Source: Eledone cirrhosa (Eukaryota). Taken from it: a stretch of 64,000 bases of DNA. Every line of letters begins with the position of its first letter. The first letter of the stretch is position 1. This document shows positions 5,845 to 46,988 of the stretch, piece after piece. The notes beneath the pieces were generated by a model. It was not told the DNA's origin. It ran no database searches and saw only the letters and a program-made list of their open reading frames with translations. Location: positions 55,986,001 through 56,050,000 of the forward strand of contig OZ024748.1 in NCBI GenBank assembly GCA_964016885.1, given 5' to 3'. The translations under genes and the position numbers were made by a program.

Positions 5845-6092
5845 TAGTATGTTTGGCAATATACTGTATGTTTAATTAAAAAGATTTTGGAGCCCATTCG
5901 CTTTGAGTTTTAAAGCAGTGACTATGTCACTTATTCTCGGCAAAAACCGATAATATGTAAGTGACATAGCCACAACTTTAAAACTCATAGCGAATGGTAT
6001 TCAAAATGCTTTTAATTGAACATACAGTATTTTGCCAAATATACTATACATACATTCATGTATACGTAACTATTTCAGAGCACCAATACAAA
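5845..6092 (+). mobile_element. Fold-back (inverted repeat) element in (TA)n, PLE-terminus-like
   Basis: Arms of about 90 bp at 5845-5935 and 5955-6045 are imperfect reverse complements centred on cgg-caaaaa-ccg. The right arm extends about 45 bp further. Both sides are flanked by (TA)n. Confidence 0.7.
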
Positions 6093-6514
6093 TATATATA
6101 TATATATAATAACTAGAAATTGACTAACTTACATATAAACATGAATAATCACAGGAGATAATTTTTACAAGCGTGTAACCACGCATAGCTAGGAAGGTAA
6201 CAAATAAATAAAGTTGACTAGAACTTCAAAAATAGATACCTTTTAATATGATTAATCTTTCCTGATTTCGATTTGGATTAAATTCATTTAATTTTTCTTA
6301 ATTTTGGATATAGATATATATATATATATATATATATGTTAAAAAAGGAAAAGATTGATTTCACTTGTAGTTCTAAACAATTTAATTTTATAATATTATA
6401 ATTTTACAATTGGGTTTGTTAGATCTAGTAAGCTCTTTGTTAACTTCAGTGGGGAGATTCTTTAAATATTCTAGGTTAACTTTCCTGGATAACTTTCTCG
6501 GATTCGAGAATATA

Positions 6515-6715
6515 TACAAGGGTCAGTTGAAAACTTCATAGACTGACCAAGATACTCTCATGGAATAAACAAATGATGTTTATTTTACGACATATCCATG
6601 GAAGGAATCAATGTTGTTATTAATAAGAGGAGTTGAAATTAATGCTCGCATGATTTCACAGCCCTAGCATCATTACATCATAGTCAGCCTGTGAAACATT
6701 CAGCCGATGCTCATA
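6515..6715. mobile_element. Tc1/mariner-derived MITE
   Basis: Imperfect TIRs TAcaagggtcagttgaaaacttcatagactgac and gtcagcctgtgaaacattcagccgatgctcaTA (consensus about CGAGGGTCGGCTGAAAAGTTCATAGGCTGAC), with TA at both ends. Confidence 0.7.
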
Positions 6716-7548
6716 TATGTACAGACACATGCAATATATAATCGCAAAATATTCTTTTTTTATTTCTTGACTTCTAATCCTGTGACATCTTGATATCATA
6801 ATAATGGAAACACAAGTCAATGCTTACATTAGTACTGCTTTGTTTTCAATAGAAGGTTTAGTTTAACTGTTTTTAGAGGAACTATTACATATTGAGACAG
6901 AATACTAAACACTAAAGGTTAAAATGCCTCTATCGTTCATAAACTTCTTCTTCTTCTTCTTCTTCTTCTTACTATTGCTATTGTCTGGTGCCAAAGTAAT
7001 TCCTATTAAACAGCTGTTGGGATTTGTTACCATCTATGCTCCAAGTAAATCTGCTCTCGTCATTTCCATCCCTTCACTCTACCACTCTTTGTATCTAATC
7101 ACGTATAAAAATCTGGGAGGTAAAAAAAACAAAACACAAATAAAGAAATAAAACAATTTTGAAAACAAAATTGAAAGAAAAGATAATAAGAAAATAAATA
7201 CTACACTTCCACCCCGTCCAATTCTACATCCCTTACCGCCTCCAAGCAACCATTATACTCAGTTTTTTTAACAATGGGGATGTACATTCTGGTGGTGTTT
7301 TTATTGACGCTGTAAGTGTTGCGTTTCGAAAATACGAGTTACTGGGGGTGATATAAGGAGAGGAGGAGGTCTAGGGAAAGTTACTGTTTCTGCAATCAGG
7401 TTTTAACAATTCTCCTGGCCGGAATTTCATTCAGACGTTCTCTCAGTCACGTTGATCCATTTTGACTTCTCACTATCTATGTATAGGATATATATGTGTG
7501 TGTATATATATATATATATATAATATATATATATATATATATATATAT

Positions 7549-7682
7549 AACGAAGGAAATGTGGTAAGGAACCAGGTGGACCATAACGCACCAAAGTACT
7601 CAATACTTAGGGTAGTAGAGTGGGTAATAGGAACAAGTAAGACCCCGACGGCTGAGCTCAAGCCGTTTCGACGGCTAATTCT
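7549..7682 (-). mobile_element. PLE-like short element family A, truncated within hammerhead stem II
   Basis: Minus strand: agaattagccgtc-GAAAC-GGCTtgagctcAGCC-GTC-ggggtc...ttccttcgtt, embedded in (TA)n; near-identical to 46571-46704. Confidence 0.8.
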
Positions 7683-8578
7683 ATACATATATATATATAT
7701 ATATACATATATGTATGAATACATAGATATATATATATATGAATACATACATACATATATATATATATATATATATATATATATATATATATATATATAT
7801 ATATATATATATATATATGTATACATACATAGATATATATATATGTATACATATATGTATATATATAAATATATATATATATATATATGTATACATATAT
7901 ATATATATAAATATATATATATATATAGATATATAGATATATGTATACACATATATATATATATAAATATATATATATATAAATATATATATGTATATAT
8001 ATATATATATATATATGTATATATATATATATGTATACATATATATATATAAATATATATATATATATATATATATATATATATATGTATACAGATATAT
8101 ATATATATAAATATATATATATATATATATATATATATATATATATATATAAATATATATATATATGTATACAGATATATATATATATATATATATATAT
8201 ATATATATATATATATATATATATATATACATATATATATATATATATATATAAATATATATATATATGTATACATACATATATATATATATATATATAT
8301 ACATATATATATATATATATATATATATATATAAATATATATATATATGTATACATACATATATATATATATATATATATATATATATATATATATATAT
8401 ATATATATATATGTATACATACATATATGTATATATATATATATATATATATATATATATATATATATATATATGTATGTATACATATATATATATATAT
8501 ATATATAAATATATATATATATGTATACATACATATATATATATATATATATATATATATATATATATATATATATAT
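7683..8578. repeat. Interrupted (TA)n array
   Basis: Direct reading. Confidence 0.95.
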
Positions 8579-43630: not shown

Positions 43631-45909
43631 CATTGTGTTCTTAAGGAAGATATTTATTTCCTCTCTTCCCAATTAACTCAACTGGGAAAGAATATGCCGA
43701 TATGTATATACTGGAGTGGTTCTTTTCAATACATAAATGCATAAAACCTTCAAAGGTTAACCGAATATACATTTAATACAGAGTGTTAGATAACATGTCT
43801 AAAGGAAAGGGTGCCAGTGACATGTAAATTCCAGGATTGTATATAAGAGTATATATGAATATTCATTCATTACATGCTTCATGGATATGATAATTATTGT
43901 GTCGTCATGTATAAAATTTGTAGAAATTTGTACTTTTTCTACGAATTTCTACAAATTTCATTCTTGACTAACCGATACATACTTAAATGTACATCTGAAT
44001 TATTTCTGCGCAATGTATGTTTTATATGTAATAGATATCAAATAAGGATTTTGACCGATGTGTATGGAAAGAATGAACCACCAAAATATTCAATAAATAC
44101 GGATATTATAAGTTAAAATTGAAATGGAATCACATCGATATCAATTAATTTGTTACACGAGCGTGAACGTGTAGTGTCTTTGCGTCTAATATTAGTTTTT
44201 TTTTTCAATCAACTGGATTTCGTGATGTGTTGAAAGAAATATGAAAAAAATATCTATATTTAATTGTATGTGTGGCATGAAACAGTTGGGATTTATATAC
44301 GTATGCATAAGCATATTAAATACACACACACACACACACACACACACATACATATGTACACACACACACGCACACACACACACACACACACACACACACA
44401 CACACACACACACACATACATACACACTCATATACATATATATACATATATATATATATTATATATATAATGAACAATGACAGGTTTCGAATGTATTAAT
44501 GAAGGTAGACGAATTTCGCCAATTAACACACACACTCACAGTCACACAATATATGTGTGTGTGATTGTAGTTGCTATGTATACACACGAATGTGTTTGAT
44601 ATATACATCTACCTACAGGCGTAAATATATCCATATACACAGCCATACATACACACACACACACACATATATATATATATATATATATATGTGTGTGTGT
44701 ATGTGTTTGTATATGTGTATGTGTCTATCTAAATGTCTACCTATCTACTTATCGATCTTTCTATTTATCTCTCTCTCTCTCTCCCTTACTCTGTTTTTCT
44801 CTTCCTCTCTCTCTCTCTCTCTCTCTCTCTCTCTCTATATATATATATATATATATATATATATATATATATATATATATATATATATATATATATATAT
44901 ATATATGTGTGTATGTATGTATGTATGTGTGTGTGTGTGTGTGTGTGTGTGTGTGTGTGTGTGTGTGTGTGTCTGTTTTTATGTTATGTGCTTGTGAATG
45001 TGTGGATTTCGTAAAGGGATAATGAGAAATTATTACAGAATATCTTAAAGCGAAATTTCAGTGAATTAATGAAGAATTAAATTTTTTTCTTCTTTGTGTT
45101 AAGACTTCAAATGGTCGATATATCAGTGAAGATGTCTCTTTAATTAATCTCAGTATTTAATTTTAATGAGAATATTTTGCAGTTTTAGCTTAAAGCATAT
45201 TTATTAACAAGGACACAATTTATAGTTTCTCAGATTTCCTTAAGTTACTAGTAGTACCCAACTATAAATTATGTTTTGCTTATGTTTGTTTATGTGCTTG
45301 TTTATGCATATATATATATATATATATATACACACACATATAAATATATATATATATACATATATATATATATATATATATATATATATGTGTGTGTATA
45401 TACAGACATATATATATATATATATATATATATATATATATATACACACACACATATATATATATATATATATATATATATATATATATATATATATATA
45501 TATATATATATATATATATATATATACATTTAAAGATGTATGTATATATATACACATCTATAAATGTATAAGTGGGTATATGCGTGTGATGCATTTGTGA
45601 TTGCTTGTGTTTTGTGGATAATGTACATGTTTGTGTTGTTGTTGTTGCTGTTGTGTATGTGTTTGGTTTACGTAAATCTATGTGTACCTTCTATTTGATA
45701 ATAAAATAAATTGATTAATAATTATTACAGATTTGGTAGCACTAACATAACATGTTCATATTGTGGTAGATCATGATGGATAACACAATTGAGAGTACGA
45801 GTTTCCCAAGTTAGATATGTCAATCTTAATATTAATTTAGATACATTTAAACATGTGTAATATATTCTATATAAGGTAGCGCGTCAAAAACTCAAAATTG
45901 TCATCATAA

Positions 45910-46360
45910 GTGTAGACTGCAAGGATAACGTGTTACGCAATGATAATGTGGATATATAAAACTCACTGAATAACGGGAAATGGTTAGACAATAAATGGTA
46001 TGTGTAGCCAATACGACACCCATATTGAGTTAAAACATACAAGATGGAAATAAATGTGACATCGGCCTATATGAAGACAGTTTTAAGACAATATCATTAA
46101 ACGCATATTTACCGACAAGATGAAAAAGAGAAAACAGTCAAAGAGTTTTTTTCGAGATATGCTTCAATTCAGAATGTTGACTTTTATATCCGATCATGTC
46201 ACGTACTAAACCGAGAAAAGTAACATATATATATAAACGGAATTATTTTATTTCTGTGGAAATGAAAAAGACCCGTGTGTATTTGAAAAATATCATATGT
46301 AAATCAATCAAAACAGGTATTATTCTCAAATGCCAATACGGCAATAACATTTTTCTTGCA
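45910..46360 (+). pseudogene. Decayed GIY-YIG endonuclease region of a Penelope-like element
   Basis: Frameshifted, colinear remnants: DCKDN (45915), NGKWLDN then VCVA (45972-46009), DIGLYEDSFKT (46058, YIG motif with Y>D), RENS...SRY, FCGNEK (46252) and ILKCQYGNNIFL (46322). These fit the PLE order CxC..CPLxGxCL..VVY.A..YIG..E..FK.R..LS.Y..CxLCxxEK..KCRH.NKF.L. Confidence 0.5.
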
Positions 46361-46570
46361 GAATATTGCTGAAACAGCAAACAGATCGACTGAAGTAGAG
46401 CACCATTACATTATGTCTTTGCGCAGATGTGTTTCGTGTCATAGGAATGTTCTCATCACATGTGAAATTGTTACAACAGGTAAATAGTGAATTGCATAAA
46501 GTGTGACATGAATGAAACGCATAAAACACAATACGTACACACACACACACACGCATATATATATATATAT

Positions 46571-46774
46571 AACGAAGGAAATGTGGTAAGGAACCAGATG
46601 GACCATAACGCACCAAAGTACTCAATACTTAGGGTAGCAGAGTGGGTAATAGGAACGAGTAGGACCCCGACGGCTGAGCTCAAGCCGTTTCGACGGCTAA
46701 TTCTGGACTCCAGAATTAGCCGTTGAAACGTCAAACGGCTTGAGCTCAGCCGTCGGGGTCCTACTCATTCCTAT
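46571..46774 (-). mobile_element. Family A copy with fold-back exactly at stem II
   Basis: Axis GACGGCTAATTCTGG-act-CCAGAATTAGCCGTT (46692-46724) with GAAAC-stem III-GTC running outward on each strand. Confidence 0.85.
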
Positions 46775-46797
46775 ATATATATATATTATATATATAT

Positions 46798-46988
46798 AAG
46801 TAGTTCCACAACAGTTTCGTCACAATACAGAGAACAAATGTTTTTTCACCTTATGCTGAGTATCCGCTTAAGGTGAAACATTTGTCCTCGGTATGGTGAA
46901 CTAACTGTTGTGGAACTACTTCTACCAAACTCGTCCCATGGACTGAGTGCTGAACAATTACGCATATTACCCTCAAATGTTCTACTAT
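46798..46988 (+). mobile_element. PLE-like fold-back element centred on stem II
   Basis: Arms 46798-46853 and 46869-46921 lie around acctta..gc..gc..taaggt; right arm GAAAC-ATTT-GTC-ctcgg. Confidence 0.8.

Follow-up and report, generated by a model that had tools for sequence, protein, structure and literature searches.

Penelope-like elements (PLEs) are retrotransposons whose insertions have been described as carrying an inverted, 5′-truncated partner of the pseudo-long terminal repeat (pLTR) and a tail on one side only (PMC8557442, PMC3846280). Pairs of hammerhead ribozymes on opposite strands, 100-700 bp apart, have also been reported (PMC4209133), and the origin of the inverted and tandem structures of PLEs has been named as an open question (PMC8557442). 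In an Anolis element, the tail is bounded by two start sites of the reverse transcriptase (RT), and PAc, a predicted dimer, cuts and extends both strands in vitro (PMC11167929). Here, we describe short palindromes derived from PLEs in a stretch of 64,000 nucleotides (nt) of contig OZ024748.1 from Eledone cirrhosa, referred to as the window, together with their copies in the 3.0 Gb assembly that was searched. There are six families in the window, named A (elements 271, 7549, 11455, 16098 and 46571, after their positions), B (31974), C (33997), D (42024), E (46798) and F (5845), where a preliminary description of this DNA had counted at least five. That description had proposed that the palindromes fold back exactly on stem II of their hammerhead, with nascent cDNA snapping back on the copied stem and priming the second arm. 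We find instead that the two arms mostly have different, fixed 3′ ends, stop at or short of a 5′ limit and meet at a variable joint. This replacement pattern is well counted in families A and C, and is seen in two more, D and E.

In L1 twin priming, both DNA ends of a cut prime cDNA; they copy different parts of the RNA, which gives an inversion and not a palindrome. The strong-stop DNA of long terminal repeat (LTR) elements is an internally primed cDNA that runs off the 5′ end of the RNA, and is transferred rather than integrated. By analogy, the elements described here would share with L1 twin priming the use of both cut ends as primers, and with strong-stop DNA the run-off at the RNA 5′ end. 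They resemble known PLE insertions in their head-to-head partner, their tail at one end, their microsatellite target, the hammerhead in the pLTR and the palindromic joint. They differ from them in being mostly 100-270 bp long without an open reading frame, in their fixed 5′ limit, in tails of ~65-80 as opposed to 30-40 nt, and in copy numbers of tens of thousands for each family. Like the Anolis element Poseidon, they have two fixed 3′ ends bounding the tail, an AT-rich target and a stem-loop at the start region; unlike Poseidon, for which the strands did not differ in start site in vitro, they use one site per end and never have two tails (PMC11167929). The counts given below link the two RT start sites known from in vitro work to the two ends of a single insertion, and the open question of PLE structure becomes testable. 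A stem II rule, a run-off limit and two-ended priming of PLEs were not found in the literature searched, mostly open-access main texts without supplements, and the available portions of PMC8969392 and bioRxiv 2026.07.22.740005 add nothing on the axis.

Two fixed 3′ ends and unequal arms

Positions within a family are numbered from the G of GAAAC as 0, negative values lying towards the RNA 5′ end, and the reach of an arm is the distance over which it matches a real long copy in the 5′ direction. Exact two-sided pattern searches of the genome returned 19,513 palindromes of family A and 6,727 of family C, which are lower bounds, and none with reversed-pattern controls for either family. The asymmetric inverted repeats in (TA)n reported earlier are present at the named positions, and palindromes of this kind are far above chance. 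Each family has two fixed 3′ ends, which also occur in single arms: ~+42 and ~+120 in family A, ~+35-41 and ~+108 in family C. The stretch of 65-80 nt between the two ends is the PLE tail.

Arm pairing was counted in 134 palindromes (63 C, 71 A) with both GAAAC cores and a gap below ~75 nt. A tailed arm is combined with a tail-less arm in 124 of them, and two tail-less arms in the other 10; two tailed arms were never found (0/134). The tail, which had been placed on both strands, is thus found on one arm only. Within the 124 mixed pairs, the tail-less arm is longer by at least 3 nt in 47 and the tailed arm in 35. Family C has an excess of longer tail-less arms (29 of 58, against 12 with the tailed arm longer; p = 0.012), and family A is without bias (18 of 66 against 23). 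Many tail-less arms of family D extend ~100 nt upstream, with a partner that is hardly more than a tail. Neither of the two is copied from its partner. The arms of one insertion do share subfamily variants and come from one source: the variant of the stem II loop is the same on both arms in 41 of 53 family C pairs, where shuffled pairs gave a mean of 7 and a maximum of 15. Single arms are common. In a second sample, consisting of evenly spaced windows that total 0.8 Mb, there are 35 insertions of family A, 15 of them head-to-head and 20 single, and 15 of family C, six of them head-to-head. These short insertions, or stubs, resemble miniature inverted-repeat transposable elements (MITEs) and can be misfiled, family A alone contributing ~35 insertions per 0.8 Mb of evenly spaced sequence.

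The joints between the arms differ from copy to copy, being blunt, overlapping by 1-4 nt or filled by short insertions. At least 6 nt copied from the arms are present at 9 of 71 family A joints and at 5 of 63 family C joints, and these templated pieces are the trace of brief fold-back synthesis. In some family A joints, for example those of loci L270 and L268 elsewhere in the assembly, T runs of up to at least 13 nt stand before the limit, corresponding to A runs on the cDNA end; they suggest slippage or tailing at run-off.

A hairpin with differing inner stems in a common frame, ACTC-[stem]-GAGT, is present in the tails of families A, C, D and E, ~3-7 nt beyond the short 3′ end and 40-50 nt ahead of the long one. 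Its predicted folding is modest (z-scores of -0.4 to -2.7, weak in A and C), and the case for it is based on the common frame and the position rather than on folding energy. From these features, the hairpin is a candidate RT binding or boundary signal.

The 5′ limit of the arms

In the 5′ direction, the arms stop at a limit that is specific to the family, on A(-25) in C, A(-18) in A and a CA at about -107 in D. In family C, the longer arm ends at -21 to -26 in 52 of 63 pairs, and only two of 126 arms go further. In family A, it ends at -14 to -22 in 57 of 71 pairs and none of 142 arms passes -25, though the ribozyme core lies at -63 to -57; the reach value of 25 is partly an artefact, as the parent sequence there matches the partner arm. 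Arms running past the limit number 4 of 50 (A) and 0 of 21 (C) in the evenly spaced 0.8 Mb. For family D, among the first 100 of 903 matches (arms reaching -98, judged by eye), 69 stop within ~10 nt, two stop shortly after and 29 run on for at least 20 nt. Relative to the ribozyme, the limit coincides with the start of stem I in families C and E, lies ~30 nt before the core in family D and falls in the stem II loop in family A. The family F joint lies beyond the cleavage site.

Around the limit, long copies carry promoter-like words. In family C, TATAAATA begins 30 nt upstream of the limit in 13 of 19 long-copy rows. Family A has TATTTA 29-31 nt upstream, and the long copy L272 reads TATTTAAA followed by TCAGT. 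A general rule of a TATA word plus 30 nt was considered and abandoned: it holds for C and A, and fails in D and E. Family D has AGACG, similar to a downstream promoter element, at +28 from the limit in L343 and at +27 in L341; the TATA-less internal promoter of Drosophila Penelope contains an RGACGTGY element (PMC2377424). Some arms also bear an extra base at the limit. Eight of 15 short family C arms have a G where the parent has C, and for seven of these neither partner nor flank explains it; an extra G is also seen in ~7 family D arms. In other retroelements, the cap is known to be copied as an extra base. We infer from these motifs that the 5′ limit may be the transcription start of the pLTR, and the extra G would then be a copy of the cap. 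No common exon sequence precedes the limit in the arms inspected, which counts against splicing.

Hammerhead ribozymes and the stem II axis

The elements carry hammerhead halves, and longer copies hold a complete CUGANGA or UUGANAA core in the type I layout, as had been expected. The order in family C is stem I, CUGAUGA, a 4-bp stem II, GAAAC, stem III and GUA, and a pattern search of the genome gave 25,532 core-bearing arms. Family A was at one point taken to lack a core, as a search for CTGANGA gave 41 matches, mostly by-products of joints. The number is this low because its core is of the U3-A8 form, UUGA(A/C/U)AA, which the long copies hold; its stem II is long, with 9 bp and a 33-nt loop enclosing a second hairpin. 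Hammerheads of the U3-A8 form are known from PLEs of Schistosoma (PMC4209133). The core of family E is CUGA(A/U/G)GA, that of family D is CUGAGGA with a stem II region of ~62 nt, and that of a family F relative is UUGAUAA. Free-energy folds recover only stem I and parts of stem II. In an Rfam scan of the window, a hammerhead is absent among the 150 of 515 matches listed, which are microRNA models driven by microsatellites with scores under the gathering thresholds.

Any inverted repeat has a hairpin at its centre, and a hairpin at the axis is therefore no proof of stem II, which can be recognised only by comparison with a long parent copy. Measured against such copies, the proposed axis, a stem II followed by GAAAC, stem III and GUH on both strands, is found exactly in only one of the eight elements named, 33997; in 16098 and 31974 the tailed arm even lacks GAAAC and stem III. 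The loss of the 5′ half of the ribozyme was described correctly for the family A stubs; in family C, the complete CUGAUGA is present on one or both arms in 55 of 63 pairs. A sharp peak of joints at the stem II loop with a short arm of variable length did not emerge: it is the end of the short arm that is fixed, and the joint that varies. In family C, a fold at stem II would leave 12 nt between the cores; spacers of 9-15 nt make up 115 of 6,727 palindromes (1.7%). Spacers taken from the coordinates of the first 50 palindromes listed for each of families A and C have a median of 43.5 nt in C, with one at 12. There is a small local peak at exactly 12 nt in this family (24 of the 50 listed among the 115), to which 33997 belongs. 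In family A, the expected fold-back product, in which the arm continues into the stem II loop of the parent, has two matches in the genome compared with 19,513 palindromes, for a pattern built from the observed parent variants only.

Several further hammerheads were noticed. Two complete minimal hammerheads lie on the plus strand of the window: one at 32311-32352, with a U3-A8 core, within the single TA-flanked repeat end of an element at ~32272-32418, and one at 54984-55026, with a 6-bp stem I, adjoining a TA run. Another TA-flanked family, at ~55437-55630 (minus strand) and 60520-60715 (plus strand), has a TTGAAAA core and a hairpin resembling stem II, with GCAAC replacing GAAAC. Elsewhere in the assembly, L224, L233 and L239 contain retrozyme-like tandem arrays with a unit of 310 bp (e.g. 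L224:5780-6400), in which every unit has a minimal hammerhead and a segment similar to the arms of 5845; the L224 array changes strand near 5500-5800.

Relationship to Penelope-like elements, retrozymes and MITEs

The palindromes are pLTR ends of Penelope-like retrotransposons with type I hammerheads, and the earlier assignment to TA-targeting PLE termini rather than to a DNA MITE holds. For families A, C, D and E, this identity is read from linked protein motifs; families B and F have no protein linked to them. In family C, the pLTR and tail run directly into the start of a reading frame in L090 and L073, as in a partial tandem, and the frame after the tail contains RWR, DKT and YRDD. A Pfam match to GIY-YIG at L090:2-331, once considered for family C, belongs to a neighbouring element. 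Long copies of family A are collinear over 1.7 kb and contain the RT thumb, a CxCx5C linker and a GIY-YIG-like domain. The long relatives L342 (family E) and L341 (family D) have RT and GIY-YIG frames, the RT frames linked by tblastn with E values down to 1e-61, and the GIY-YIG-like motif just upstream of the pLTR aligns among families A (L180), E (L342) and D (L341). Locus L342 (G000:C1:368061250-368065300) holds a family E insertion of 3.7 kb with head-to-head arms, one tailed and one tail-less, and broken RT and endonuclease frames on both.

By their motifs, families A, C, D and E appear close to the Hydra clade of PLEs, which is characterised by DKT, RWK, a CxCX5C linker, the lack of CCHH and a CxxC before a conserved E, with CxxC/CxH near E and N (PMC8557442). 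The corresponding motifs are DKT and RWR in family C, DKT in E and CxCx5C in A, D and E, along with CNLC/CGLC and CKH/CPH and a single Cys in the GIY-YIG core; no one family displays all of them. The likeness to the Hydra clade thus covers DKT, the RWK-like RWR, CxCX5C, the lack of CCHH, the CxxC before the conserved E, canonical hammerheads and (TA)n targets; the clade has been described from few families (PMC8557442), and the likeness is one of motifs, families B and F being without a linked protein.

The stubs also share features with non-LTR retrozymes and with MITEs, as short non-coding derivatives with a hammerhead and a MITE-like look (bioRxiv 2026.07.22.740005); unlike these, they form no tandem arrays and have neither symmetric terminal inverted repeats (TIRs) nor a transposase partner. 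An assignment to DNA MITEs was rejected on the one-sided tail, the variable joints, the common single arms and the lack of symmetric TIRs, and on long copies with RT and GIY-YIG and no transposase. Target-site duplications are unreadable, being masked by the (TA)n flanks. Non-LTR retrozymes were likewise rejected: the elements of the window are single or head-to-head, not in head-to-tail tandem, and only the relative of family F forms arrays, elsewhere in the genome.

A proposed mechanism and its alternatives

We consider it reasonably probable that each palindrome is built anew from two cDNAs, which are primed by the DNA on either side of a cut in (TA)n, start at a different fixed site each, run out of template at the capped RNA 5′ end and are then end-joined head to head. 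The endonuclease would cut both strands in (TA)n, and each DNA 3′ end would begin cDNA synthesis at one of the two start sites next to the tail hairpin. Both ends may prime on one RNA, or on RNAs from one source. If the machinery were engaged at the 5′ end of a transcript initiated in the pLTR, both cDNAs would exhaust their template after 60-250 nt, and host end-joining would presumably seal the centre. Failure of one cDNA would leave a single stub, and engagement at the downstream pLTR would give long arms such as those of L342. The hammerhead would lie near the axis because it lies near the transcript start, its stems giving only occasional microhomology. In family C, the tail-less arm more often goes further, as expected if the upstream primer leads; family A has no such bias. 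Promoter words upstream are missing from the stubs, which are probably inactive from the moment of insertion. As a broader and tentative suggestion, to which we give somewhat less than an even chance, PLE integration may be two-ended in general: a paired enzyme would prime both sides of the cut on one RNA, each side at its own one of two start sites set by the conserved ACTC-GAGT hairpin, and at the transcript 5′ end this would yield integrated ‘strong-stop’ palindromes. If so, tens of thousands of joints in this genome would mark out the start sites in each family as well as its promoter.

A number of observations weigh against assembly from two run-off cDNAs. The putative transcription start is read from DNA motifs, and families D and E are without a TATA word at -30. 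A second TATA-like word is present in family A near -80, and no arm ends at its +30 position. The family E limit is spread over ~15 nt, and about one third or more of the arms listed run on. Before the family A limit, 46 arms have T (21), G (12), C (9) or A (4), and the partner arm can account for about half of the Gs. Variants shared by the arms may also arise by gene conversion. Pfam and PDB searches returned no RT or GIY-YIG match for these proteins, the family A endonuclease included. Sampling also matters: about two thirds of the 134 pairs are from the first-listed matches, in the first 38 Mb of contig C1, and the remaining third from the evenly spaced windows and flanks.

The limit has a further reading. 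All four limits fall on pyrimidine-AG and are thus also legible as splice acceptors, with a T-rich tract before CAG in family C, and those of C, D and E coincide with the 5′ start of stem I or are close to it; in Drosophila, the 5′ end of helix I is where a Penelope intron ends (PMC4209133). Two cDNAs might therefore be joined as proposed, with the limit set by a splice acceptor or by an enzyme stop after copying stem I. This we regard as unlikely, for the AG forms part of the arms, in front of which stands a single G or unrelated sequence and in no case a common upstream exon; some E subfamilies lack AG, the A limit lies inside the stem II loop, and a fold-back product of stem I is seen in 0 of 28 unpaired family C arms and ~2 of 100 family E rows. 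A different origin would be a palindromic master copy for each subfamily, moved whole as RNA or as MITE-like DNA, with centres that decay as perfect palindromes are unstable. Central deletion of palindromes is common and speaks for such a copy, as do the two fixed outer ends, the variants shared by the arms and the best matches to 46571, most of which have its joint, though they were selected by that query. It is nonetheless improbable: single arms, with one or the other 3′ end, are no rarer than pairs (20 of the 35 family A insertions), copies 98-100% identical still differ in their joint, some with added bases, the ends are not symmetric TIRs, and the long copies contain RT and GIY-YIG and not a transposase.

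The remaining alternatives involve self-priming. Self-priming on an antisense transcript, proposed by Arkhipova et al. 2013, is how palindromes at inverted Penelope junctions have been interpreted in print (PMC3846280), and the palindromic TATA-like words could fire both ways. We hold it to be very improbable here, as it predicts neither the G 5′ of the sense arm, nor a limit 30 nt after the sense TATA, nor that either arm can be the longer. Fold-back on the copied stem II is compatible with 33997, with the small family C peak at the exact spacing and with the short templated pieces at joints. A copy cannot outreach its template, however, and the tail-less arm is the longer in 47 of 124 pairs; the expected class makes up only 1.7% of family C and two matches in family A, 55 of 63 family C pairs keep CUGAUGA, and the short-arm length is fixed. 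There is very little chance that fold-back on stem II accounts for the palindromes at large, and as a general rule it is largely refuted; for the minor stem II class it is possible.

Elements of the window

The family A palindrome 46571 illustrates the two-armed structure. Its tailed arm (46571..46709, minus strand) starts at the 5′ limit, A(-18), at 46709, and runs through GAAAC (46687-46691), stem III, GUC and the short 3′ end at 46650 to the long 3′ end; the tail hairpin ACTC-[stem-loop]-GAGT (46620..46643, minus strand) follows ~6 nt beyond the short end. Its tail-less arm (46711..46773, plus strand) stops at the short 3′ end (TTCCTA) inside TA. Contigs of independent sequencing runs, possibly from the assembly's own sample, drop ~25-fold in depth past 46710, and their loose ends cluster at 46649 and 46709. 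In 46571 and in the old palindrome 11455 (11454..11644, plus strand), the tailed arm of which starts at about -12 with a diverged core, the joint falls where the parent's long stem II has its loop region, the 5′ core is gone, and the axis hairpin consists of the two arms themselves, not of stem II. The other family A elements are palindrome 16098 (16097..16249), with a tail-less arm on the plus strand at 16199-16249 and a minus-strand tailed arm; the single tailed arm 7549 (7549..7682, minus strand), with a 5′ end at about -13 that abuts TA; and the old single tailed arm 271 (251..383, minus strand), the alignment of which starts at -8.

The family C palindrome 33997 (34000..34166, plus strand) has the sole true stem II joint, ATTC GGGA GAAT at 34043-34054, and a tail hairpin at 34102-34120. 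In the family D palindrome (42024..42274, plus strand), the stem II tip at 42112-42128 is off-centre, on one arm, and the tail hairpin is at 42201-42225; the tail-less arm on the minus strand reaches to about -47 and the tailed arm to about -5, a difference of ~40 nt. The family E palindrome (46798..46989, plus strand) has a long tailed arm in which the CUGAAGA core has decayed to CTGAGTA (46856-46862), with GAAAC at 46875 and the tail hairpin at 46929-46948. Family B (31972..32168) combines a minus-strand tail-less arm (31972-32070, -50 to +50) with a plus-strand tail-only piece at ~32099-32168; its arms were read from alignments to L183 and L214, that of the tail being weak. Both arms of the family F palindrome (5845..6095) leave out the entire ribozyme: compared with the relative L208, they start 31 and 39 nt downstream of its GAAAC.

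One more palindrome, beyond those listed earlier, lies at 27874..28193, with CTGATGA on both arms (28107, plus; 27959, minus) and an axis ~70 nt upstream of the core. Two adjacent palindromes in TA, at 19967-20112 and 20110-20310, are 97% and 72% self-complementary, and a tail-only piece similar to the family B tail of L214 lies between TA runs at about 8579-8655. Stubs of different families are often neighbours across a short TA run (46571-46989 in the window; L002 and L021 elsewhere), as if the flank of one insertion were the target of the next. The window also contains ~10 copies of a 200-bp repeat that resembles a short interspersed nuclear element, often beside trinucleotide runs (1969-2187, 29661-29761, 31029-31238, 31727-31957, 48838-49055 and 56840-57627).

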